Source: Methanocaldococcus sp. 16A (lineage in GTDB: Archaea > AGJL01 > Methanococci > Methanococcales > Methanocaldococcaceae). Taken from it: a stretch of DNA of 13,123 nucleotides. The notes beneath the pieces were generated by a model, which made no database searches, was not told the origin of the DNA, and saw only the letters and a list, made by a program, of their open reading frames with translations. Each line of letters starts with the position of its first letter. Within the stretch, counting starts at the first letter, position 1. The translations under genes were made by a program, and so were the position numbers. The stretch lies in the NCBI GenBank assembly GCA_049860595.1, contig CP187553.1. One strand, given 5' to 3'. Below, in pieces: positions 1 through 13,123 of the stretch.

Positions 1-190
1 AATGACACAAATAAAAGGAACTGTGTTAGATGTGGCTACTGCTGCAAATGATACCGATGCTGTTGATTTAGTAAATACCATATTCCAAACAGGAAAATCA
101 GGTTTAATCATATTGGCGTTATCTACTTTGGTACTGGGTGCGGCGACGATTATCGCCTTCTTAAGAGGGGTTGGACATGCCACAAAATGA
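1..190 (+). CDS. 3' part of the putative capsid protein gene (continues from 12852-13123 across the circular junction)
   Basis: The translation MTQIKGT...GVGHATK is identical to residues 92-153 of ORF 6291-6752. Confidence 0.85.
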   Translation, partial: MTQIKGTVLDVATAANDTDAVDLVNTIFQTGKSGLIILALSTLVLGAATIIAFLRGVGHATK

Positions 191-485
191 TGAAAAGAAT
201 GAGGTTAAAATTTTTAAGTGTTTAATTAAAGATGGACAGCTTTATTACTCCATTGAGTTTCTTAGCTATGTGTTAGGCGTTTCTGGGCAAACTTTAAGGA
301 ACAAGATTAAAAATCAAAAAGGTTTTTTACATAAATATGTGTTAAAAATCAAAAAAGGTAGCGGGAAATTTGAGTATTATGTTCCCGATGAGATAATCAA
401 TATATTACAAAATAAATGTCTTGTTATCGATGGTGAGGTTTTATATTATGATAAAAGCACTTCAGAATTAATAAAATTACTTTAA
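177..485 (+). CDS. Small HTH DNA-binding protein (MerR/excisionase-like HTH), ~102 aa
   Basis: YYSIEFLSYVLGVSGQTLRNKIKN is an HTH pattern followed by a beta-wing (IKKGSGKFEYYVP). ATG at 177 is preceded by GAGGGG (165-170); the track's start at 171 is TTG. It overlaps the stop of the upstream gene, suggesting an operon. Confidence 0.75.
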   Translation: MPQNDEKNEVKIFKCLIKDGQLYYSIEFLSYVLGVSGQTLRNKIKNQKGFLHKYVLKIKKGSGKFEYYVPDEIINILQNKCLVIDGEVLYYDKSTSELIKLL

Positions 486-547
486 AATTTCGGTGTAAAA
501 ATAACCGTAAAAAATTTGTTGAGTTTTAGGGTTGTATGAATGTATGC

Positions 548-585
548 CCGACATTTTGTTCAAAATGTCAGGTTAAAATTTTCGG
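548..585. promoter_or_regulatory. Palindromic site GACATTTTG-TT-CAAAATGTC plus adjacent AGGTTAAAATTTTCGG box
   Basis: Perfect 9-bp inverted repeat (550-558/561-569). Both motifs recur at 5954-5995. Confidence 0.55.
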
Positions 586-717
586 TATAAAAAAATAAGC
601 ATAAATTATTTATAATGTAATTGATAAAAAAATAGTGTTAAACCAAAATAAACCCGACCCGACCCACAAACTAAGCTTAACTGTACTGTTAATTGTAGAA
701 AAATAGATTTACTAATT

Positions 718-797
718 TACTTTTAATTTTTGGGAAAGGTAGAGGGGGCCTCTAAGTGGTTACCCCTCTACCCCCAACCCCCAAGAACTAAAAAGTA
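718..797 (+). promoter_or_regulatory. Long stem-loop with GC-rich core directly upstream of the helicase RBS
   Basis: Perfect 10-bp inner stem GGTAGAGGGG(738-747)/CCCCTCTACC(763-772). Imperfect outer stem 718-734/780-797. RBS GAGGTGAT at 800-807. Confidence 0.65.
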
Positions 798-812
798 TTG
801 AGGTGATAACCT

Positions 813-3800
813 ATGAGTAATTATATAGCCACTACTATAAATGATTTACTCAACTATCCAGAGGATGTATTGAGGGCAGTTATAAAATTATTGAATGTTA
901 GATATAATCCTAACACTCTCAAAGAATATGAGATTTTTAAATCTGAACATATTGATTTGGACTTTATGAATATTTGGCTATTTTCAATAAAATACCTATC
1001 CGACGATGAGAGGGCTATTTTAGAAAAACATGGTTTATGGGATATATCCTCAGGTATGCCTTCCGATGAATTCTATAAATTGGAATATTTAATTATGAAC
1101 TCATTAGGTTGGAATGAGTGGAGACCTATAGACCCTGCAGTTGCAACCAAAAAATTAAAAGAAAAAAGTTGCGGTTGCAACTTTGGTAATGGAGGCCAAC
1201 TAAATGGTTGCATGGAAAGTTGCAATGCAACCTCAAGTAACTATGTGAAAGAAGGTGCAACTTCAGATAATTTTGATGAAGATAATGCAACCTTAAGCAA
1301 CTTTTATAATATTGAGAAGTTGCACAGCAACTTTTTAAAAGTAATTGAGTATGATGAGTTTTGGGAGAAACTCGCAGAAAGAATTGAAGCACTTAAAAAA
1401 TCAACACCATATAAAAAGAACACAATAGGAAAATACATAACTCAATTGAAATTCTTAAAAGAGCCACAATCTAAATCCCAATATATCGATGTAGTGTGTA
1501 GAGAATATCAAATATCACACACAACCGTAGAGACACACATAAAGATATTAAAACATCCAGACATTGGATGGGTAGAGGTTTATAAAGGAGAGTATGACAA
1601 GCCATGCCTAAAATTAACTTACAAATTTTACGAAGACATAAGAGACCTTATAGACCAATATTTACCTAAAAAGGAAATATCAGATAGTGAAGATAAAGAT
1701 AAAACCATAGAGGAGTTAAGAAAACAACTAAAGAAACTTATAGAGAAACACATAACACCAGAGGGATTTGAATTTGACATTAACGAAGTTGATGAGTTGG
1801 AAGGCATAGAGAGAGTTGCAGGAGCATACTTTAGAGATAAACTATTAAATGAACCATACACAGCCATAGAATGGATTTATAAAGTTTATTATGAAAAATA
1901 CTTTACATATAAGCCGATAAACATAAACATAGTAGGTTTAGAAACACTTGCAGGAAGTAGGATAATAACGAAGGTAGAGGATTGGGGAGCATTTAAGGAT
2001 AAATTAGTAGTGTTAAGAGGAGATATAGCAGGGATTATAAAGCATAAAGTAAGGAGGGACATTTTACTAACTTACAAATGTGAGGATTACGATAAAAATG
2101 GAGAAAAGAGGGGCTGTGGCTATGAATTGAAGAGATTATATAGACCGTTAGAGGGGACAGCAGACCATAAGGTAAAGTGTCCAAATTGTGGAAGGGAGAT
2201 AAAAGCCGTTGAACCAATATTAAAGGATGTAGAAGGGGATGAGGTAAAATTAGAGAAAGATTTAACAGTTATATTATTGCAGTTAAGAGGGAGTGAAGAG
2301 CTGTATAAGGTATATCTTCCATACACACCAGAGATAAACAACCTAAGGGATGTAGAGATAGTAGGGATTTTAAAAACGAACTATAAAGGGGAGTATTACA
2401 TTGAAGGGCTGAGCATAAATCCACAAAAGACAATAAACTTTAATTATGATGCATTTGTTAGAAAGGTAAAAAAGGAAGGATATGATAATGCCTTAGATTA
2501 CATAAAAGATAAGGTATTTTATGAGATTAAGAGAATATATGACAAAAATGGAGAAAATCCAACAATAGACACATTAATAGAGATAGAGATATTAGCATCT
2601 TCACATATTTGGTGGGATAGCAATAGGAAGGGATACTTAAAGCCAGAAACAATTGATGCCTTATTTATTGGAAGTTACGGGCAAGGGAAGAGTTTAACCA
2701 TAGAACCATTAGCAAAATTACACAACACAACAGAGGATACGATAAGAATAGATATGCCTAATATTGAGAACTTAATAGGGCTGATAACATCAAGAGACAA
2801 CATAAAGTATTTTAAGAAGGGATTAATTCCGATGAACCACAACAGACCGATAATATTTGAGGAGTTTATTGATTTTATCTTAAGATTGGGGAATGACATA
2901 GACCTACTAAAGGCAGGAAAGACTGCAGGAATATGGAAGAGAGAAAGAGAAGGATATAACATACCAATGATAGGAGTAAGTCCATGGATAGGGATTGGAA
3001 ACATAAAAGATATTGAGTTAATGGAGTTGTGGGAAATATACCACTTAAAAGGAGTTAATGAGTTTAGAGAGGCATTAATTAATTATTATACTAAAAAATT
3101 ATTAGAACAATACGAATACAATAGAGAAGAAGCAAGGGAGAGAGCTAAAAAGAGAGTAGATAACATATTAGGAATACATCCAGAATTTGGAGGGTTGGAT
3201 TGGCTATTAACGAATATATTGGAATTTACATTGAGGAATATGAGAGGGATGACAGATAGAATACCATTAATTTACCTATTAAAGCCATACACTAATGAGG
3301 ATTGGAAAGAGATAAAACTACATACTTATTCAGTAAAAAAATCGAGAAAAGACAACAATTTTATAAAATATAAGGAGTTAGAGGCTTACGAATGCTCATT
3401 ATTCATAAACTACATTAAAAACAAGGATATAGAATTCAATAAAGAGGCATTAGTAACACTTTGGGACATAGAGGAGAAGTTAAGGGAATTATTGAGAGAT
3501 AACGACTTATTTAAAGGATATTCCGATAGATTACTTAATCAAATAGAGTATATGGCAAAAGCTTATGCAAAACTAAGATTTAAGGAAGAGGTAGAGTTAG
3601 AGGATGTAAGGGATGCTTTAAAGACATGGTTTAAGAGTATATTAGGAGTATTGTTGAGGATTAAAGCTCCAGAGAAGGTTAAAGAACTATTTAAATTAGT
3701 TGAGGATGAGAAAAAAGAGAACTTAGATGAAGAGCAAGAATTAGAGGAGATAGATAAACTTATTGAAGAGAATAAAAAGATAATGGAATTGAAAGGGAAG

Positions 3801-3962
3801 ATATTAGATTATATGCTACAAAATCCAGAAAAGGTTTATACAACGATAGAAATTTCGGAAGTATTTGAACTATCGGAAGATACGGCGGATAAGATATTGA
3901 AAGAATTATGGAAAGTTGGGGATGTTATGAAAATTGGGGACGGACAATGGAAGCCCGTATAA
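813..3962 (+). CDS. mcm: Divergent MCM-family replicative helicase with N-terminal extension (putative initiator-helicase), 1049 aa
   Basis: C4 Zn finger (C-x11-C...CPNC, 2079-2189) in an OB-like region. Walker A GSYGQGKS (2670-2693), Walker B IIFEEF (2850-2867), Arg-finger-like TDRI (3252-3263). Sensor-2 helix [32 protein letters not shown] and a C-terminal wHTH ([30 protein letters not shown]). Strong RBS GAGGTGAT. Confidence 0.85.
1140..1333. repeat. Cluster of GTTGC/GCAAC (GTTGCAAC-derived) repeats inside the helicase gene; candidate iteron/origin
   Basis: 13 GTTGC/GCAAC pentamers in ~195 bp. TGCAAC occurs at 1226, 1256 and 1286 (30-bp period). Inverted pairs at 1165-1184 and 1317-1333. 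Confidence 0.7.
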
Positions 3963-3974
3963 TGAGGGGGTAGT

Positions 3975-5255
3975 ATGGATAGTAGGGTAGCATACTATAA
4001 ACTAACATCCAGATACTTATATTATTTTTGCTTAGATAGGATGCTAAGTTGCCATAGGTTGGATTTAGATAGAGATAGGAAAATCAATTGGAGACATCCG
4101 AAGTATTGGAACTATAACAATATTCCGAAAGGTAATAAGCCATACCTTAGACATATAGATTTATGGGACAAGAGAGGATATTGGGATAGATGGGTATTGG
4201 AGAACCTTAGGAGTATTTACTGCTCTCCATACTACTTTAAGACACCAAGATATGAGTTGGAGTATCCAGAGGTAGATTATACCTATTGGGATTGGGTATT
4301 GGATATTGACATTAAGGGAGATATTGAGAAGTCGAAGGAAATATGCAGGGCAGTATATGACATCCTCAAAGATTATGGAGTTAAAGATATTCCTATAAAG
4401 TTTAGCGGAGGTAAAGGGTTTCATATTTGGATTAATGCAAAGCACTTAACGAATGAGATATTAGAGAAGGGCTTTATAGAGGGCAGTAAAATTTTAACAC
4501 AATTCTTAGAGTTTAAGTTAAGGAATTACTTAGATTTTTTAGATAAAGACAAAACTACGGGGATAGATTACACTATTTACAAAGAGAACATTTGCATAAC
4601 TGCACCGTTTAGCCTATACTACAAAGATGTAGAGGGCAAGACACCAATAAGCATACCATTCCCAATAAACAAAATAGAGAAGTTTAAGCCAATAACACTA
4701 CAAAGGATTAGGAAGGAACTTTTAAAGAAATTACTAAAATATTATGAAAACTTTGGAGAGATAAGAGGAGATTTAACGGATTTTATAGAGGATGCATTAA
4801 ATTATTATAAAGCAACTAAAAAAGACAACTCCAATACTCTAATAACAATTGATATAGAGCAACGAAAACCTATGAAAAAACCTAAGAAGGAAGATAATAG
4901 AGGGAACGAATACATTAAGGCAACAATAGGGGATAAGGAAGTAGTCCTAAATAAGAGCAAGTTAGAGGACTACCTTAGGGAGTTGATAAATTCAGATTGG
5001 ACTGATGGAAAAATGAGGGCATGTTATTATTTAACTTCACTGTGTAAGTTACTGGGTTATGATAGAGATAAGGCAAAAAAGGTATTGGATGCATGGGCTT
5101 CCAAGTATGGCAGTAAATACATGAAACACATAGAGTATGAGTTAAAATATCTCTATGATAGGAATGGGAAGGTATGTAGCATAAAATGGATAAAAAACAA
5201 CATTCCAGAGGCTAAAAATCAACTCCTCATTTATGAAAGGTATTATAAAGAATGA
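3975..5255 (+). CDS. Archaeo-eukaryotic primase (AEP) / primase-polymerase with C-terminal helical PriX/PriL-CTD/PriCT-like domain, 426 aa
   Basis: Motif I VLDID (DID at 4302-4310), motif II FSGGKGFH (SGGKGFH at 4404-4424), motif III GIDYTIY followed by ITAPFS. A Lys-rich linker precedes the helical domain DGKMRACYYLTSLCKLLGYDRDKAKKVLDAW. It starts 12 bp after the helicase stop with RBS GAGGGGG. Confidence 0.88.
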   Translation: MDSRVAYYKLTSRYLYYFCLDRMLSCHRLDLDRDRKINWRHPKYWNYNNIPKGNKPYLRHIDLWDKRGYWDRWVLENLRSIYCSPYYFKTPRYELEYPEVDYTYWDWVLDIDIKGDIEKSKEICRAVYDILKDYGVKDIPIKFSGGKGFHIWINAKHLTNEILEKGFIEGSKILTQFLEFKLRNYLDFLDKDKTTGIDYTIYKENICITAPFSLYYKDVEGKTPISIPFPINKIEKFKPITLQRIRKELLKKLLKYYENFGEIRGDLTDFIEDALNYYKATKKDNSNTLITIDIEQRKPMKKPKKEDNRGNEYIKATIGDKEVVLNKSKLEDYLRELINSDWTDGKMRACYYLTSLCKLLGYDRDKAKKVLDAWASKYGSKYMKHIEYELKYLYDRNGKVCSIKWIKNNIPEAKNQLLIYERYYKE

Positions 5256-5265
5256 AAGATAAAGA

Positions 5266-5275
5266 TAATATATAC
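5266..5275 (+). promoter_or_regulatory. Putative archaeal TATA box (TAATATATAC) for the 38-aa peptide gene
   Basis: Preceded by a purine-rich BRE-like stretch (GATAAAGA), 21 nt before the ATG at 5297. The same 10-mer occurs on the minus strand at 5713-5722. Confidence 0.45.
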
Positions 5276-5296
5276 TGAAAATAAGAGGTTGTGATT

Positions 5297-5413
5297 ATGG
5301 AATTAGATACATTTACCATAGTGTATATTGCGGTAGTAATTACACTTATGTTATTTACAACAGCATTTGGAATATGGTTTTGGAAGCATAAGAAAAAGTT
5401 ACTCCATTCATAG
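5297..5413 (+). CDS. 38-aa single-pass membrane peptide MELDTFTIVYIAVVITLMLFTTAFGIWFWKHKKKLLHS (not in ORF track)
   Basis: Hand translation from ATG 5297 to TAG 5411-5413. RBS-like GAGGTTGTGAT at 5285-5295. Acidic N-terminus, ~24-aa hydrophobic stretch, WFW aromatic belt and KHKKK basic tail. Confidence 0.7.
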   Translation: MELDTFTIVYIAVVITLMLFTTAFGIWFWKHKKKLLHS

Positions 5414-5647
5414 AGTTTTGTAAATGTGGTATAATGCACCACCAAATATTAATGTAGTGTATGCCATATATCCAATGTCTAATAGCACTAATCCTAAACC
5501 ATTTATAGGATTACCTTCGGAGAAAGCTACTTTAACAACAATAGCAACTAATAAGGTCAATCCTGCTCCAATAAATAATTTATACAAATCAAAAATTGTA
5601 TTGTAAAGTAACTTCCTTTTTTCAAATTCTTTCTCATTGTTACTCAT
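5408..5647 (-). CDS. 79-aa membrane protein with two predicted TM helices, unknown function
   Basis: Charged N-terminus, then two hydrophobic segments (LFIGAGLTLLVAIVVKVAF; GLGLVLLDIGYMAYTTLIFGGALY). RBS-like GGTG upstream and BRE/TATA-like AGAAATTAATATATA on the minus strand at 5714-5728. Confidence 0.75.
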   Translation of the reverse strand: MSNNEKEFEKRKLLYNTIFDLYKLFIGAGLTLLVAIVVKVAFSEGNPINGLGLVLLDIGYMAYTTLIFGGALYHIYKTL

Positions 5648-5727
5648 GTATAGACACCACGATTAATCCTTAATAATACATTTGGGGCTTTATTTTTCTA
5701 TTTTTCAAGAGTGTATATATTAATTTC

Positions 5728-5791
5728 TTACAAAATTACAAAATTGTAAAAATGTGTAATTACAAAACTTATAACAATTACAAAATTGTAA
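5728..5791. repeat. AT-rich TTACAAAA repeats, including two exact copies of AATTACAAAATTGTAA
   Basis: TTACAAAA at 5728, 5736, 5760 and 5778. The 16-mer at 5734-5749 and 5776-5791 contains the palindrome TTACAA-AA-TTGTAA. Confidence 0.7.
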
Positions 5792-5879
5792 GTTACCCCT
5801 ATATTTATTTTTTCGACAAATTATGGCATGAGCAGAGTTAAGATTTAAAATTATCTTTTAAAATGAGAATAACAAAATA

Positions 5880-5923
5880 ACAAAGTGCCGATTGTCAGCT
5901 CGCGCTGTTAATCGGCACTTTGT
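5880..5923. other. Strong intergenic hairpin (14-bp perfect arms plus inner CAGC/GCTG stem, TCGC loop)
   Basis: ACAAAGTGCCGATT(5880-5893) / AATCGGCACTTTGT(5910-5923). Confidence 0.7.
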
Positions 5924-5953
5924 AAAGTAATCAAACAACCAAAAGATTACCTT

Positions 5954-5995
5954 AGGTTAAAAATTTTCGGACACCGACATTTTGGATAAAATGTT
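5954..5995. promoter_or_regulatory. Second copy of the AGGTTAAAAATTTTCGG box and the ACATTTT-N4-AAAATGT palindrome
   Basis: AGGTTAAAAATTTTCGG at 5954-5970 and CCGACATTTTGGATAAAATGTT at 5974-5995. Same motifs as 548-585 in swapped order. Confidence 0.55.
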
Positions 5996-6183
5996 AAGGG
6001 GGTGTTGAATTTTTTTGAAGTTTTGGAGAGGGTACTGCTCTATGGAGGTGTGTATTCACAGATTAAATAAATATATTCAAATATACAAACATTAGATTTT
6101 GAATATAAGCAAAACTGGGGAAGGCACTTTATTATAATATAATTAAGGGTAACGGTAGATTACTATAAAAATTAATGGGTGTG

Positions 6184-6235
6184 AAAATTGCCGAATTCGT
6201 GGAAATTCGGCAATTTTAGGCGTTATCTTTAAATA
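6184..6235 (+). promoter_or_regulatory. 14-6-14 perfect palindrome plus TATA box (TTTAAATA) upstream of the putative capsid gene
   Basis: AAAATTGCCGAATT-CGTGGA-AATTCGGCAATTTT (6184-6217), TTTAAATA at 6228-6235, and RBS-like AGGTGGGG before ATG 6291. Confidence 0.6.
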
Positions 6236-6290
6236 TGAGAAGAGATAACGCTATTTAGTGTAAATCAATTGGTTTGTAAGGTGGGGAAAG

Positions 6291-6752
6291 ATGTCAATAG
6301 CAACAGTTGTATCAAGAGATGCATCTATGAAAGGTTTGGAAAAATTAGTTAAAGCGGTTCAAGGAGATGATACTACATTTATTGAATTGATTACCGATAC
6401 AAGACAGTTTATAGGGGGTTATTCATTCGGGCTAATGAGCTTAATGATAATATCAAATGCAAGATGGTTAATTAATATATTACCAGCCAGATTACCCGCC
6501 ACTGTAGAAATTGCAGTTTCAGCAATTGTTATTTTAGTTGCTTTAATTATAGGAATTTTAATAATGACACAAATAAAAGGAACTGTGTTAGATGTGGCTA
6601 CTGCTGCAAATGATACCGATGCTGTTGATTTAGTAAATACCATATTCCAAACAGGAAAATCAGGTTTAATCATATTGGCGTTATCTACTTTGGTACTGGG
6701 TGCGGCGACGATTATCGCCTTCTTAAGAGGGGTTGGACATGCCACAAAATGA
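6291..6752 (+). CDS. Putative spindle-shaped-virus major capsid protein precursor (SSV1 VP1/His1/PAV1-type architecture), 153 aa
   Basis: The C-terminal ~80 aa form a hydrophobic helix (aa ~71-92, ...ALIIGILIMTQI), a polar loop with an N-glycosylation sequon N107-D-T, a second hydrophobic helix (aa ~125-145) and a short basic tail. A ~70-aa N-terminal extension resembles the cleaved VP1 propeptide. The gene itself is well supported; the product call is pattern-based. Confidence 0.65.
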   Translation: MSIATVVSRDASMKGLEKLVKAVQGDDTTFIELITDTRQFIGGYSFGLMSLMIISNARWLINILPARLPATVEIAVSAIVILVALIIGILIMTQIKGTVLDVATAANDTDAVDLVNTIFQTGKSGLIILALSTLVLGAATIIAFLRGVGHATK

Positions 6753-7047
6753 TGAAAAGAATGAGGTTAAAATTTTTAAGTGTTTAATTAAAGATGGACA
6801 GCTTTATTACTCCATTGAGTTTCTTAGCTATGTGTTAGGCGTTTCTGGGCAAACTTTAAGGAACAAGATTAAAAATCAAAAAGGTTTTTTACATAAATAT
6901 GTGTTAAAAATCAAAAAAGGTAGCGGGAAATTTGAGTATTATGTTCCCGATGAGATAATCAATATATTACAAAATAAATGTCTTGTTATCGATGGTGAGG
7001 TTTTATATTATGATAAAAGCACTTCAGAATTAATAAAATTACTTTAA
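6739..7047 (+). CDS. HTH DNA-binding protein (copy 2)
   Basis: Identical to 177-485. Confidence 0.75.
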   Translation: MPQNDEKNEVKIFKCLIKDGQLYYSIEFLSYVLGVSGQTLRNKIKNQKGFLHKYVLKIKKGSGKFEYYVPDEIINILQNKCLVIDGEVLYYDKSTSELIKLL

Positions 7048-7374
7048 AATTTCGGTGTAAAAATAACCGTAAAAAATTTGTTGAGTTTTAGGGTTGTATG
7101 AATGTATGCCCGACATTTTGTTCAAAATGTCAGGTTAAAATTTTCGGTATAAAAAAATAAGCATAAATTATTTATAATGTAATTGATAAAAAAATAGTGT
7201 TAAACCAAAATAAACCCGACCCGACCCACAAACTAAGCTTAACTGTACTGTTAATTGTAGAAAAATAGATTTACTAATTTACTTTTAATTTTTGGGAAAG
7301 GTAGAGGGGGCCTCTAAGTGGTTACCCCTCTACCCCCAACCCCCAAGAACTAAAAAGTATTGAGGTGATAACCT

Positions 7375-10300
7375 ATGAGTAATTATATAGCCACTACTAT
7401 AAATGATTTACTCAACTATCCAGAGGATGTATTGAGGGCAGTTATAAAATTATTGAATGTTAGATATAATCCTAACACTCTCAAAGAATATGAGATTTTT
7501 AAATCTGAACATATTGATTTGGACTTTATGAATATTTGGCTATTTTCAATAAAATACCTATCCGACGATGAGAGGGCTATTTTAGAAAAACATGGTTTAT
7601 GGGATATATCCTCAGGTATGCCTTCCGATGAATTCTATAAATTGGAATATTTAATTATGAACTCATTAGGTTGGAATGAGTGGAGACCTATAGACCCTGC
7701 AGTTGCAACCAAAAAATTAAAAGAAAAAAGTTGCGGTTGCAACTTTGGTAATGGAGGCCAACTAAATGGTTGCATGGAAAGTTGCAATGCAACCTCAAGT
7801 AACTATGTGAAAGAAGGTGCAACTTCAGATAATTTTGATGAAGATAATGCAACCTTAAGCAACTTTTATAATATTGAGAAGTTGCACAGCAACTTTTTAA
7901 AAGTAATTGAGTATGATGAGTTTTGGGAGAAACTCGCAGAAAGAATTGAAGCACTTAAAAAATCAACACCATATAAAAAGAACACAATAGGAAAATACAT
8001 AACTCAATTGAAATTCTTAAAAGAGCCACAATCTAAATCCCAATATATCGATGTAGTGTGTAGAGAATATCAAATATCACACACAACCGTAGAGACACAC
8101 ATAAAGATATTAAAACATCCAGACATTGGATGGGTAGAGGTTTATAAAGGAGAGTATGACAAGCCATGCCTAAAATTAACTTACAAATTTTACGAAGACA
8201 TAAGAGACCTTATAGACCAATATTTACCTAAAAAGGAAATATCAGATAGTGAAGATAAAGATAAAACCATAGAGGAGTTAAGAAAACAACTAAAGAAACT
8301 TATAGAGAAACACATAACACCAGAGGGATTTGAATTTGACATTAACGAAGTTGATGAGTTGGAAGGCATAGAGAGAGTTGCAGGAGCATACTTTAGAGAT
8401 AAACTATTAAATGAACCATACACAGCCATAGAATGGATTTATAAAGTTTATTATGAAAAATACTTTACATATAAGCCGATAAACATAAACATAGTAGGTT
8501 TAGAAACACTTGCAGGAAGTAGGATAATAACGAAGGTAGAGGATTGGGGAGCATTTAAGGATAAATTAGTAGTGTTAAGAGGAGATATAGCAGGGATTAT
8601 AAAGCATAAAGTAAGGAGGGACATTTTACTAACTTACAAATGTGAGGATTACGATAAAAATGGAGAAAAGAGGGGCTGTGGCTATGAATTGAAGAGATTA
8701 TATAGACCGTTAGAGGGGACAGCAGACCATAAGGTAAAGTGTCCAAATTGTGGAAGGGAGATAAAAGCCGTTGAACCAATATTAAAGGATGTAGAAGGGG
8801 ATGAGGTAAAATTAGAGAAAGATTTAACAGTTATATTATTGCAGTTAAGAGGGAGTGAAGAGCTGTATAAGGTATATCTTCCATACACACCAGAGATAAA
8901 CAACCTAAGGGATGTAGAGATAGTAGGGATTTTAAAAACGAACTATAAAGGGGAGTATTACATTGAAGGGCTGAGCATAAATCCACAAAAGACAATAAAC
9001 TTTAATTATGATGCATTTGTTAGAAAGGTAAAAAAGGAAGGATATGATAATGCCTTAGATTACATAAAAGATAAGGTATTTTATGAGATTAAGAGAATAT
9101 ATGACAAAAATGGAGAAAATCCAACAATAGACACATTAATAGAGATAGAGATATTAGCATCTTCACATATTTGGTGGGATAGCAATAGGAAGGGATACTT
9201 AAAGCCAGAAACAATTGATGCCTTATTTATTGGAAGTTACGGGCAAGGGAAGAGTTTAACCATAGAACCATTAGCAAAATTACACAACACAACAGAGGAT
9301 ACGATAAGAATAGATATGCCTAATATTGAGAACTTAATAGGGCTGATAACATCAAGAGACAACATAAAGTATTTTAAGAAGGGATTAATTCCGATGAACC
9401 ACAACAGACCGATAATATTTGAGGAGTTTATTGATTTTATCTTAAGATTGGGGAATGACATAGACCTACTAAAGGCAGGAAAGACTGCAGGAATATGGAA
9501 GAGAGAAAGAGAAGGATATAACATACCAATGATAGGAGTAAGTCCATGGATAGGGATTGGAAACATAAAAGATATTGAGTTAATGGAGTTGTGGGAAATA
9601 TACCACTTAAAAGGAGTTAATGAGTTTAGAGAGGCATTAATTAATTATTATACTAAAAAATTATTAGAACAATACGAATACAATAGAGAAGAAGCAAGGG
9701 AGAGAGCTAAAAAGAGAGTAGATAACATATTAGGAATACATCCAGAATTTGGAGGGTTGGATTGGCTATTAACGAATATATTGGAATTTACATTGAGGAA
9801 TATGAGAGGGATGACAGATAGAATACCATTAATTTACCTATTAAAGCCATACACTAATGAGGATTGGAAAGAGATAAAACTACATACTTATTCAGTAAAA
9901 AAATCGAGAAAAGACAACAATTTTATAAAATATAAGGAGTTAGAGGCTTACGAATGCTCATTATTCATAAACTACATTAAAAACAAGGATATAGAATTCA
10001 ATAAAGAGGCATTAGTAACACTTTGGGACATAGAGGAGAAGTTAAGGGAATTATTGAGAGATAACGACTTATTTAAAGGATATTCCGATAGATTACTTAA
10101 TCAAATAGAGTATATGGCAAAAGCTTATGCAAAACTAAGATTTAAGGAAGAGGTAGAGTTAGAGGATGTAAGGGATGCTTTAAAGACATGGTTTAAGAGT
10201 ATATTAGGAGTATTGTTGAGGATTAAAGCTCCAGAGAAGGTTAAAGAACTATTTAAATTAGTTGAGGATGAGAAAAAAGAGAACTTAGATGAAGAGCAAG

Positions 10301-10524
10301 AATTAGAGGAGATAGATAAACTTATTGAAGAGAATAAAAAGATAATGGAATTGAAAGGGAAGATATTAGATTATATGCTACAAAATCCAGAAAAGGTTTA
10401 TACAACGATAGAAATTTCGGAAGTATTTGAACTATCGGAAGATACGGCGGATAAGATATTGAAAGAATTATGGAAAGTTGGGGATGTTATGAAAATTGGG
10501 GACGGACAATGGAAGCCCGTATAA
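7375..10524 (+). CDS. mcm: Divergent MCM-family helicase (copy 2)
   Basis: Identical translation to 813-3962. Confidence 0.85.
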
Positions 10525-10536
10525 TGAGGGGGTAGT

Positions 10537-11817
10537 ATGGATAGTAGGGTAGCATACTATAAACTAACATCCAGATACTTATATTATTTTTGCTTAGATA
10601 GGATGCTAAGTTGCCATAGGTTGGATTTAGATAGAGATAGGAAAATCAATTGGAGACATCCGAAGTATTGGAACTATAACAATATTCCGAAAGGTAATAA
10701 GCCATACCTTAGACATATAGATTTATGGGACAAGAGAGGATATTGGGATAGATGGGTATTGGAGAACCTTAGGAGTATTTACTGCTCTCCATACTACTTT
10801 AAGACACCAAGATATGAGTTGGAGTATCCAGAGGTAGATTATACCTATTGGGATTGGGTATTGGATATTGACATTAAGGGAGATATTGAGAAGTCGAAGG
10901 AAATATGCAGGGCAGTATATGACATCCTCAAAGATTATGGAGTTAAAGATATTCCTATAAAGTTTAGCGGAGGTAAAGGGTTTCATATTTGGATTAATGC
11001 AAAGCACTTAACGAATGAGATATTAGAGAAGGGCTTTATAGAGGGCAGTAAAATTTTAACACAATTCTTAGAGTTTAAGTTAAGGAATTACTTAGATTTT
11101 TTAGATAAAGACAAAACTACGGGGATAGATTACACTATTTACAAAGAGAACATTTGCATAACTGCACCGTTTAGCCTATACTACAAAGATGTAGAGGGCA
11201 AGACACCAATAAGCATACCATTCCCAATAAACAAAATAGAGAAGTTTAAGCCAATAACACTACAAAGGATTAGGAAGGAACTTTTAAAGAAATTACTAAA
11301 ATATTATGAAAACTTTGGAGAGATAAGAGGAGATTTAACGGATTTTATAGAGGATGCATTAAATTATTATAAAGCAACTAAAAAAGACAACTCCAATACT
11401 CTAATAACAATTGATATAGAGCAACGAAAACCTATGAAAAAACCTAAGAAGGAAGATAATAGAGGGAACGAATACATTAAGGCAACAATAGGGGATAAGG
11501 AAGTAGTCCTAAATAAGAGCAAGTTAGAGGACTACCTTAGGGAGTTGATAAATTCAGATTGGACTGATGGAAAAATGAGGGCATGTTATTATTTAACTTC
11601 ACTGTGTAAGTTACTGGGTTATGATAGAGATAAGGCAAAAAAGGTATTGGATGCATGGGCTTCCAAGTATGGCAGTAAATACATGAAACACATAGAGTAT
11701 GAGTTAAAATATCTCTATGATAGGAATGGGAAGGTATGTAGCATAAAATGGATAAAAAACAACATTCCAGAGGCTAAAAATCAACTCCTCATTTATGAAA
11801 GGTATTATAAAGAATGA
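10537..11817 (+). CDS. AEP primase/primase-polymerase (copy 2)
   Basis: Identical translation to 3975-5255. Confidence 0.88.
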   Translation: MDSRVAYYKLTSRYLYYFCLDRMLSCHRLDLDRDRKINWRHPKYWNYNNIPKGNKPYLRHIDLWDKRGYWDRWVLENLRSIYCSPYYFKTPRYELEYPEVDYTYWDWVLDIDIKGDIEKSKEICRAVYDILKDYGVKDIPIKFSGGKGFHIWINAKHLTNEILEKGFIEGSKILTQFLEFKLRNYLDFLDKDKTTGIDYTIYKENICITAPFSLYYKDVEGKTPISIPFPINKIEKFKPITLQRIRKELLKKLLKYYENFGEIRGDLTDFIEDALNYYKATKKDNSNTLITIDIEQRKPMKKPKKEDNRGNEYIKATIGDKEVVLNKSKLEDYLRELINSDWTDGKMRACYYLTSLCKLLGYDRDKAKKVLDAWASKYGSKYMKHIEYELKYLYDRNGKVCSIKWIKNNIPEAKNQLLIYERYYKE

Positions 11818-11858
11818 AAGATAAAGATAATATATACTGAAAATAAGAGGTTGTGATT

Positions 11859-11975
11859 ATGGAATTAGATACATTTACCATAGTGTATATTGCGGTAGTA
11901 ATTACACTTATGTTATTTACAACAGCATTTGGAATATGGTTTTGGAAGCATAAGAAAAAGTTACTCCATTCATAG
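11859..11975 (+). CDS. 38-aa single-pass membrane peptide (copy 2)
   Basis: Identical to 5297-5413. Confidence 0.7.
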   Translation: MELDTFTIVYIAVVITLMLFTTAFGIWFWKHKKKLLHS

Positions 11976-12209
11976 AGTTTTGTAAATGTGGTATAATGCA
12001 CCACCAAATATTAATGTAGTGTATGCCATATATCCAATGTCTAATAGCACTAATCCTAAACCATTTATAGGATTACCTTCGGAGAAAGCTACTTTAACAA
12101 CAATAGCAACTAATAAGGTCAATCCTGCTCCAATAAATAATTTATACAAATCAAAAATTGTATTGTAAAGTAACTTCCTTTTTTCAAATTCTTTCTCATT
12201 GTTACTCAT
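11970..12209 (-). CDS. 79-aa two-TM membrane protein (copy 2)
   Basis: Identical to 5408-5647. Confidence 0.75.
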   Translation of the reverse strand: MSNNEKEFEKRKLLYNTIFDLYKLFIGAGLTLLVAIVVKVAFSEGNPINGLGLVLLDIGYMAYTTLIFGGALYHIYKTL

Positions 12210-12851
12210 GTATAGACACCACGATTAATCCTTAATAATACATTTGGGGCTTTATTTTTCTATTTTTCAAGAGTGTATATATTAATTTCTTACAAAATTA
12301 CAAAATTGTAAAAATGTGTAATTACAAAACTTATAACAATTACAAAATTGTAAGTTACCCCTATATTTATTTTTTCGACAAATTATGGCATGAGCAGAGT
12401 TAAGATTTAAAATTATCTTTTAAAATGAGAATAACAAAATAACAAAGTGCCGATTGTCAGCTCGCGCTGTTAATCGGCACTTTGTAAAGTAATCAAACAA
12501 CCAAAAGATTACCTTAGGTTAAAAATTTTCGGACACCGACATTTTGGATAAAATGTTAAGGGGTGTTGAATTTTTTTGAAGTTTTGGAGAGGGTACTGCT
12601 CTATGGAGGTGTGTATTCACAGATTAAATAAATATATTCAAATATACAAACATTAGATTTTGAATATAAGCAAAACTGGGGAAGGCACTTTATTATAATA
12701 TAATTAAGGGTAACGGTAGATTACTATAAAAATTAATGGGTGTGAAAATTGCCGAATTCGTGGAAATTCGGCAATTTTAGGCGTTATCTTTAAATATGAG
12801 AAGAGATAACGCTATTTAGTGTAAATCAATTGGTTTGTAAGGTGGGGAAAG

Positions 12852-13123
12852 ATGTCAATAGCAACAGTTGTATCAAGAGATGCATCTATGAAAGGTTTGG
12901 AAAAATTAGTTAAAGCGGTTCAAGGAGATGATACTACATTTATTGAATTGATTACCGATACAAGACAGTTTATAGGGGGTTATTCATTCGGGCTAATGAG
13001 CTTAATGATAATATCAAATGCAAGATGGTTAATTAATATATTACCAGCCAGATTACCCGCCACTGTAGAAATTGCAGTTTCAGCAATTGTTATTTTAGTT
13101 GCTTTAATTATAGGAATTTTAAT
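12852..13123 (+). CDS. 5' part of the putative capsid protein gene (copy 2; completed by 1-190 on the circle)
   Basis: ATG at 12852 matches 6291 at offset 6561. The frame runs off the window end and continues at base 1. Confidence 0.8.
   Translation, partial: MSIATVVSRDASMKGLEKLVKAVQGDDTTFIELITDTRQFIGGYSFGLMSLMIISNARWLINILPARLPATVEIAVSAIVILVALIIGIL

Follow-up and report, generated by a model that had tools for sequence, protein, structure and literature searches.

A Methanocaldococcus plasmid carrying one gene of a spindle-virus-like module: a candidate virus satellite

We analysed a 13,123-nt window that is the entire contig C3 of Methanocaldococcus sp. 16A, one of three contigs of a genome assembly (99.98% complete) that also holds the chromosome C1 (1,580,187 nt) and the element C2 (27,218 nt). 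The three contigs have a GC content of 30-32%. From gene content and sequence comparisons, we consider it very probable that C3 is a plasmid of the small extrachromosomal element (small-ECE) type known from M. jannaschii, with a viral hairpin-protein gene, p153, captured from a spindle-virus-like element. A satellite lifestyle of C3, dependent on such a virus for its spread, is a tentative proposal that we place somewhat below even odds.

At the structural level, one unit occurs twice in C3, head to tail (copy 1, 1-6562; copy 2, 6563-13123; 6,562 and 6,561 nt), and a single G, in a G5/G4 run at about 5997-6001, sets the copies apart. Assemblers often turn a small circle into such a dimeric contig with a homopolymer slip. 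Thus, the simplest reading is that C3 is a free replicon of about 6.56 kb and most simply a circle, the circularity being deduced from the dimeric contig. We hold it very improbable that the unit instead belongs to a larger viral genome, as a fragment or through a mis-join. The circle is deduced solely from the dimer, but the two copies are complete and one homopolymer base apart, and the unit holds a full replication module with relatives on contigs of 5.9-12.9 kb. Besides, the rest of the genome matches the unit only by a 51-nt motif on C2 and by short stretches of about 32-37 nt on C1, at 86-88% identity.

Each unit contains six open reading frames (ORFs) of at least 40 aa, with antisense ORFs embedded in larger genes excluded: p104, p1049, p426, p40, p79, and p153. 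No integrase, second ATPase, or large adsorption-type protein was found among them with the ORF list, Pfam, and PHROG. This agrees with the inventory in a preliminary description of this DNA, which listed an MCM helicase, a primase of the archaeo-eukaryotic type (AEP), a helix-turn-helix (HTH) protein, a 153-aa protein, and two tiny membrane proteins, and no integrase, second ATPase, or large gene. The sequence support for the HTH and MCM assignments is weak.

The C3 backbone belongs, by sequence comparison, to the plasmid replicon family of the M. jannaschii small ECE (NC_001733). We regard it as a plasmid backbone because its MCM-primase block is about 75% identical to that element at the DNA level (74.7% over C3 833-5246). 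At the protein level, p1049 is 61% identical to the 1064-aa protein of the small ECE, and p426 is 73% identical to its counterpart there. Homologues of p1049 sit on contigs of 2.0-12.9 kb, and the closest one, 96% identical and named as a Methanocaldococcus plasmid protein, lies on a contig of 9,796 nt. Metagenome contigs from four runs in two studies, one of the runs labelled as a hydrothermal vent metagenome, are about 93-94% identical to C3 over 760-5253 and 5295-5940 and continue into unlike sequence. The small self-contained replicon proposed in the preliminary description is therefore borne out as a plasmid-type MCM and AEP module akin to that of the small ECE.

Regarding the two replication proteins, p1049 is predicted to be a divergent MCM-family helicase, with what we take from its sequence to be a C4 zinc motif, a Walker A motif (GQGKS), and a C-terminal winged-helix region. 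In Pfam it matched only MCM_lid (E 0.018, under the cut-off), and in PHROG it matched phrog_10371 'DNA helicase' (8.8e-7). A nine-sequence p1049 profile had MCM7 as its top match in the PDB (E 0.021), with the TDRIPLIY stretch aligned with the SRFD arginine-finger region. The AlphaFold2 model of p1049 has low confidence (mean pLDDT 59.7, AAA core below 30); Foldseek matched this model to MCM subunits in all the rows listed, with a best E of 2.8e-9, yet with TM-scores of 0.14-0.20. For p426, the matches were PF01896 (E 1.4e-5; 26.0 bits, just under the 26.8-bit cut-off), TIGR00335 (PriS, NCBIfam; 9.7e-5), and phrog_16345 'primase' (2.3e-5).

The p153 protein has a variable N-terminal part (residues 1 to about 65), followed by a first transmembrane helix, a loop of about 30 aa, a second transmembrane helix, and a short basic tail; across the family, the tail is short and either basic or glycine-rich. 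A Kyte-Doolittle scan gave hydrophobic stretches at 63-103 and 123-149, and the AlphaFold2 model (mean pLDDT 79.4) has helices at 72-105 and 109-151, with pLDDT 87-91. A further N-terminal helix at 46-63 is less hydrophobic and not conserved in homologues. The hallmark of spindle-virus capsid proteins, a hairpin of two hydrophobic helices of about 70-85 aa that often stands behind an N-terminal extension, is present in p153, and the fold is generic according to Foldseek. Judged on the model, the p153 architecture of a pro-region plus an alpha-helical hairpin is that of spindle-virus capsid proteins such as SSV1 VP1 and PAV1 ORF121.

The p153 family is small: 12 proteins, including the query, were found at E ≤ 0.001 among 1.84 billion representatives. 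Roughly the last 85 residues form its conserved core, and G88, D108, and A111 are invariant there in our family alignment (A1). D108 is kept in 13/13 sequences of this alignment, and the NDT sequon (p153 107-109) in 7/7 proteins with genomic context. For SSV1 VP1, both N-terminal processing and glycosylation are known. Two distant family members of 97-98 aa, P0011 and P0013, start like an archaeal class III (pilin/archaellin) signal peptide, with basic residues, then G, and then a hydrophobic helix. Of the 13 members, one had a match to Pfam Arch_flagellin (E 0.039). There are hints in these sequences that the pro-region of the family could be cut by a prepilin-type peptidase.

The close homologues of p153 (51-57% identity) are found on the chromosome of M. 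indicus SL43 (L008), on three metagenome contigs (L021-L023), and in genome G010 (L024). L022 and L024 gave identical BLAST rows and were counted once, which leaves four independent contexts. In 4/4 of them, the same module genes follow the p153 homologue as far as each contig extends. The hairpin protein is followed by a small membrane protein, then by proteins of about 141 aa and about 310 aa (the latter a membrane protein) and a tyrosine recombinase; next are an AAA+ ATPase (450-474 aa), a second hairpin protein of 80 aa, a DUF2341 giant (832-1169 aa), and more membrane proteins. The recombinase matched PF00589 at about 1e-11. In M. indicus, the block (L008 8200-18300) starts right after atpD and has a radical-SAM gene behind it, which suggests an integrated element some 10 kb long. 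We found no description of this Methanococcales module in the searchable literature, a search that lay outside supplements and subscription papers.

The module is also present, more diverged and headed by a distant p153 homologue, on C2 and in a second genus (L025, where the A1 profile matched at 2.2e-8). Its C2 copy spans 12430-23024 (L010 430-11021), includes a second giant protein of 843 aa, and is headed by p121 (12430-12795), which hhalign aligned with A1 at 95.2% probability (E 2.7e-8) across 77 columns that take in the NDT loop. The C2 recombinase matched PF00589 at 2.8e-12 and gave XerA-type matches in NCBIfam, and the C2 giant protein matched DUF2341 at 7e-16. Among 40 Methanococcales genomes, the hairpin protein and the module ATPase co-occur in the same four. 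Searches of C2 12001-20000 (blastn) and of C2 p121 (tblastn) against plasmids, and of the C2 ATPase (tblastn) against phages, gave no match. A second hairpin protein, a two-helix membrane protein of 80-81 aa, is encoded just upstream of the giant DUF2341 gene (C2 17002-17244, L008 14727-14972).

The module ATPase resembles those of spindle viruses: hhalign related it to SSV1 B251 (95.5%, E 1.6e-8) and to His1 ORF16 (93.7% over 249 columns), and it matched phrog_5484 at 3.7e-13. Homologues of p153 are encoded together with this B251/His1-ORF16-type ATPase in L008, L022/L024, C2, and L025, and C3 itself has no ATPase except the MCM protein. In the accessible part of Zhou et al. 2025, the combination of a hydrophobic alpha-helical major capsid protein (MCP) and an AAA+ ATPase is given as the signature module of spindle viruses (bioRxiv 10.1101/2025.02.15.638363). 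For the spindle families of Thermococcales, the available text of a 2026 preprint describes a core of hairpin MCPs, two lectin-type giants, many membrane proteins, and swappable MCM/AEP modules (PMC12934983).

The C2 and L008-type elements share this PAV1/Thermococcales pattern as far as these sources describe it, with the hairpin protein first, membrane proteins, two giant lectin-type proteins, and exchangeable MCM/AEP genes (PMC3543421, PMC12934983). By annotation, the C2 gene order resembles that of PAV1, which has the ORF121 MCP, a membrane protein, a soluble protein, a membrane protein of about 300 aa, and concanavalin-like giants. Unlike PAV1, the C2 and L008 modules have a tyrosine recombinase and a B251-type ATPase within the structural block. 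In our comparison, C2 fits the core pattern described for Thermococcales spindle viruses. We propose that these modules would build spindle-type virions, with the p153/p121 family as the major or co-major capsid protein; that the family forms part of the virion shell seems to us, on balance, slightly favoured.

A direct link from p153 to known capsid proteins was sought in several ways. At E ≤ 1, p153 had no match in Pfam or PHROG. For the 13 family members at E ≤ 10, no family appeared consistently among the best 25 of 44 Pfam and the best 25 of 33 PHROG families, and PF06281 (VP1_VP3) and PF25665 (His1_capsid) were not among these; run against the genome at E ≤ 10, the latter two models found nothing. 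Comparison of the p153 family by hhalign with SSV1 VP1 and VP3, His1 VP21, PAV1 ORF121, and a 14-sequence fusellovirus VP1 profile gave probabilities of 0.1-1.5%. Foldseek of the p153 model returned nothing below E 0.5 (best E 3.0 in the PDB and 0.52 in BFVD), and the matches above this value were generic: ATP synthase c subunits, designed hairpins, and phage membrane proteins. There was no match by tblastn against phage and plasmid collections at E ≤ 10, and nothing by tblastn against C1 and C2. A search of IMG/VR with alignment A2 gave 172 pattern hits, 0 of them confirmed, and phmmer against the PDB gave only transaminases (E 0.37). In the ESM Atlas, the nearest named clusters to p153 were VP1_VP3 (0.81) and His1_capsid (0.80), below the 0.9 bar and thus a lead only. 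The 80-aa module protein was near His1_capsid as well (0.78, also below the bar), and since both proteins land there, the ESM Atlas cannot separate p153 from this other candidate.

The comparison of p153 with the SSV1, His1, and PAV1 capsid proteins, proposed in the preliminary description as a check, thus gave no profile or structural similarity. A control showed that this test has almost no power for PAV1-type proteins: the 14-sequence VP1 profile finds VP3 at 99.3%, but His1 VP21 only at 31.8% and PAV1 ORF121 at 0.7%. PAV1 ORF121 has been shown to be structural, according to the part of that study available (PMC3543421). Because the same test misses this proven capsid protein, the miss for p153 carries little weight. 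From the initial proposal of a spindle-virus-like capsid protein, what holds is the hairpin architecture and the fact that its homologues head a module with the spindle-signature ATPase; a profile or fold match did not materialise.

The family could otherwise be a non-capsid membrane protein, acting in assembly, in egress, or as an anchor, or the whole module could serve non-viral transfer of DNA or protein, the role proposed for the pT26-2 core, in which case p153 would be an accessory membrane protein of C3. We find this unlikely, although no capsid family was matched, helical hairpins are generic, and the 80-aa hairpin protein is an alternative capsid candidate. The C2 and L008-type elements are also known from their genes alone, unlike particle-forming spindle viruses. 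Besides, C2 shares with pMEFER01, of the pT26-2 family, its MCM (47%), integrase (68%), and HTH (47%) proteins and one small ORF. The membrane-protein-rich core of that family is read by its authors, in the portion of the paper available, as a secretion or transfer system (PMC6972569). However, none of the seven pT26-2 core genes (t26-5p to 15p) was found in C2 by tblastn of its ORFs of at least 70 aa against pMEFER01 at E ≤ 1e-3; by this comparison, C2 is not a member of the pT26-2 family. The module ATPase is of the SSV1 B251/His1 ORF16 type and not that of the pT26-2 core, and the first-gene position, pro-region, glycosylation sequon, and lectin-like giants fit the Thermococcales spindle-virus pattern in so far as the sources give it.

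Regarding the capture, C3 carries exactly one module gene, p153, and the other module genes were absent by tblastn. We propose that a plasmid backbone would have gained the p153 gene and the adjacent p104 gene as cargo. Only the final 117-130 nt of the p153 gene are similar at the DNA level to the L008-type elements (69%), and the capture is therefore old. It could be that a small-ECE-type plasmid recombined long ago with an L008-type provirus and kept a single viral gene that has no role today, and this short DNA similarity agrees with it. So do the existence of backbone relatives without p153 and the varying cargo of the replicon family, with a methylase and other genes in the M. jannaschii small ECE. 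We nevertheless hold a neutral remnant to be improbable. The p153 gene is intact, with a full-length ORF, the family-invariant residues and NDT sequon kept, and a ribosome-binding motif upstream, and a useless gene of 460 nt on a 6.56-kb plasmid would be expected to decay in the time that about 50% protein divergence implies.

If C3 is a satellite, it would replicate by itself, like SRCEs (discussed below) or pSSVx. When a virus of this family multiplies, p153 would enter the membrane or virion lattice, and C3 would be packaged and spread. What makes such a lifestyle plausible, as far as genes can tell, is a plasmid replicon with exactly one viral-module gene, the intact state of that gene, the module-bearing C2 in the same cell, and the 51-nt element that C2 and C3 share.

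Several observations weigh against a satellite that brings its own capsid protein. The p153 family has no profile or fold link to any known spindle capsid protein, in what is, as said, a weak test. In blastp and hhalign comparisons, no PAV1 protein paired significantly with a module family, the best being a P-loop match at 43.8%. The 80-aa module hairpin protein could equally be the capsid protein, and either or both could build the shell. BLAST sees no similarity of p153 to C2 p121; in hhalign, their hairpins are 21% identical. By sequence, p153 is a variant of the M. indicus type, a type present in neither C1 nor C2, and C2 may not be its helper; no L008-type element was found in C1 by tblastn. 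The earlier suggestion to look for a co-resident spindle virus is thus answered in part: C2 carries the module in the same genome, but its own p121 is a distant subtype of p153.

Also on this side, one metagenome contig links C3 5938 to 592 and would represent a relative without the p153-p104 segment, so that p153 could be dispensable cargo. This joint, flanked by similar AAATTTTCGG motifs and called at a likeness of 85%, is suggestive only, since it could be a repeat artefact. In the four runs, metagenome depth was 0-3.3 in the C3 bins 6130-6800 and 1-227, and poor cover alone is no evidence. A search for sequencing runs with the reads of this assembly found none, the share of sampled words present being at most 0.17 in any run, and it listed no RNA run. 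Finally, C2 appears as a recent invader to the host CRISPR system and C3 does not, which argues against a joint arrival of the two elements.

The CRISPR record behind this last point is as follows. Chromosome C1 has seven CRISPR arrays (at about 46.8, 325.7, 520.8, 540.9, 683.8, 996.1, and 1216.2 kb) with 247 spacers. More than half of these match C2 (127/247), 123 of them perfectly (strands 69/54), and a 5' CCN flank is present at 109/123 of the perfect matches. The C2-matching spacers cluster at one end of all seven arrays. By contrast, 0/247 host spacers match C3; uptake in proportion to length would have given about 31. Matching of CRISPR spacers, another check put forward at the outset, hence found nothing for C3 in its own genome but gave one lead elsewhere, in a terminal spacer of genome G007 (L029; G007:C1 449013-449052) that matches the C3 primase gene at 4012-4051 with 93% identity over 40 nt. 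C2 remains in the assembly despite the perfect host spacers. With 127 spacers against C2 and none against C3, this strain offers a natural case of selective adaptation between co-resident elements. Selective spacer uptake was reportedly seen in Sulfolobus by Erdmann and Garrett (2012).

The same record bears on two further scenarios. In the first, already raised in the preliminary description, p153 would act as an antiviral or competition factor: a foreign-subtype hairpin protein could poison or resize the assembly of an incoming virus, or block superinfection at the membrane. The p153 gene is intact, with GGTGG 6 nt upstream of its ATG, the protein is far from the resident p121 (21% hairpin identity, seen by hhalign only), C3 has no other module genes, and the host is in open conflict with C2 through 127 spacers. 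We regard interference as unlikely all the same; no known defence family was matched, in searches that did not include PADLOC, and C2 persists beside C3 in the assembly.

The second scenario is a three-party system, which we put forward as a long shot. C2 would be the first Methanocaldococcus spindle virus, under CRISPR attack, and C3 would be a satellite or decoy that is spared. The p153 protein would co-assemble with the C2 lattice, either packaging C3 into smaller particles or sabotaging C2 virions. If it were true and the strain were in culture, it would provide a tractable hyperthermophilic counterpart of capsid-forming phage satellites.

Comparison with known systems places C3 closest to two kinds of element. 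SRCEs are described, in the accessible text of Zhou et al. 2025, as haloarchaeal circles of 2.7-9.0 kb with plasmid replication genes plus MCP and/or ATPase, putative satellites that the authors compare with cf-PICI (bioRxiv 10.1101/2025.02.15.638363). By the same account, SRCEs are known only from metagenomes, and pSSVx and pSSVi are the only experimentally known archaeal virus satellites. The idea in the preliminary description that C3 would be the first archaeal analogue of capsid-encoding satellites has therefore been overtaken by that work.

Like SRCEs as described there, C3 is a small circle that combines a plasmid-derived replication module with an incomplete spindle-type module, the morphogenetic role of p153 being a predicted one. 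The differences, within the limits of the same text, are several. SRCEs have halophile hosts and plasmid Rep-family genes, whereas C3 comes from a hyperthermophilic methanogen and has a divergent MCM and an AEP primase. The C3 hairpin protein has no detectable similarity to the His1 or SSV capsid proteins. Spacers target 7/9 of the SRCEs, and no host spacers target C3. C3 also comes from a near-complete three-contig assembly that holds a candidate helper. Should C3 be a satellite, then host order, replicon type, the unrecognised hairpin-protein family, and a near-complete genome with a candidate helper would be new with respect to SRCEs.

The plasmids pSSVx and pSSVi are, in the sources at hand, autonomous replicons packaged into spindle particles with a helper virus, whereas C3 is known from its genes alone. 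The gene content also differs: pSSVx has a homologue of the AAA+ ATPase and no capsid protein, and C3 has the hairpin protein and no ATPase. The M. jannaschii small ECE (pDSM2661_2, NC_001733) has the same replication module as C3, with about 75% DNA identity over about 3.6 kb. It differs in its size of 16.5 kb and in its cargo, an N-6 DNA methylase and other genes, with no p153 homologue. The pT26-2-family element pMEFER01 shares only the 51-nt element with C3.

According to a 2022 paper, in the part available, the first virus characterised from hyperthermophilic methanogens is the head-tailed MFTV1, and our literature search, with the scope given above, turned up neither a spindle-type virus nor a satellite reported for Methanocaldococcus. 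If C3 is a satellite and the strain can be cultured, then packaging, helper dependence, and interference are testable at the bench. Independently of the satellite question, there is a family of spindle-virus-like elements, integrative or episomal, in Methanococcales (4/40 genomes) whose putative capsid protein escapes current capsid models.

The features of the C3 unit are collected in Table 1. ARAGORN found no tRNA in the unit, and an Rfam scan of it at E ≤ 1 gave only a chance thermometer match. The result of a sigma-70 and terminator scan was disregarded, as its bacterial models are unsuited to an archaeal host.

Table 1. Features of the C3 unit, with positions in the window
Feature	Position	Strand	Remarks
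Plasmid unit, copy 1	1..6562		Copies alike except one homopolymer G
p104, small putative DNA-binding protein	171..485	+	Weak HTH matches; in the circle, shares 20 nt with the end of the p153 gene
Candidate origin/control region, intergenic	486..812		AAATTTTCGG-type motifs at 481-501 and 573-593; inverted repeat 547-572
p1049, divergent MCM-family helicase (predicted)	813..3962	+	61% aa identity to M. jannaschii small ECE protein; Foldseek; PDB profile
p426, archaeo-eukaryotic primase, PriS-like catalytic domain (predicted)	3975..5255	+	PF01896, TIGR00335, phrog_16345
p40, tiny single-pass membrane protein (predicted)	5291..5413	+	One hydrophobic segment; 77.5% aa identity to M. lauensis pI
p79, small membrane protein (predicted)	5408..5647	-	92-95% aa identity to M. 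lauensis pI, spanning that record's origin
Control region	5648..6290		Iterons, two hairpins, 51-nt element, duplicated 19-nt element, GGTGG
p153, candidate capsid/virion membrane protein	6291..6752	+	Variable N-terminus, conserved alpha-helical hairpin; family heads virus-like modules

Among the small genes, p104 matched the Pfam Mga HTH family (E 0.015; 16.3 bits against a cut-off of 21.1) and HTH_11 (E 0.091, below the cut-off), and no homologue of it was found in C1, C2, the M. jannaschii small ECE, or M. lauensis pI. In the intergenic region behind it, C3 728-778 is 86% identical to M. lauensis pI. The p40/p79 cassette with its flanks (5278-5719) has 92-93% DNA identity to the 5.1-kb M. 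lauensis pI and 86% to a contig of genome G010. Because the rest of those replicons differs, the cassette is probably a small module moving between plasmids.

The control region upstream of p153 has three AATTACAAAA(TTGTAA) iterons at 5734-5791 and two hairpins, one with 20-nt arms (5880-5923) and one with perfect 14-nt arms (6184-6217). The GGTGG motif before the p153 start is at 6280-6284.

The 51-nt element (C3 5924-5974) has counterparts on C2 at 24295-24345 (84% identity), on M. lauensis pI (84%), and on pMEFER01 (78%). Outside C3 and C2, its coordinates are L007 211-260 and L011 20292-20345. It is laid out as a GTAATC...GATTAC inverted repeat followed by GTTAA...TTT(C/T)GGACA, and it is common to four Methanocaldococcus extrachromosomal elements with differing replication proteins. 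On C2 and pMEFER01, it stands directly upstream of the integrase gene. No convincing copy was found in chromosome C1. With no such copy and no tRNA, we rejected for now that it is a tRNA-derived att site or a chromosomal origin box.

A 19-nt element, TTATCTTT[T/A]AA[A/T]ATGAGAA, is duplicated in C3, at 5851-5869 and 6223-6241. The first copy sits just ahead of the 5880-5923 hairpin; the second closely follows the 6184-6217 hairpin and is 50 nt upstream of where p153 starts. From its sequence and position, this repeat may be a duplicated promoter or operator.

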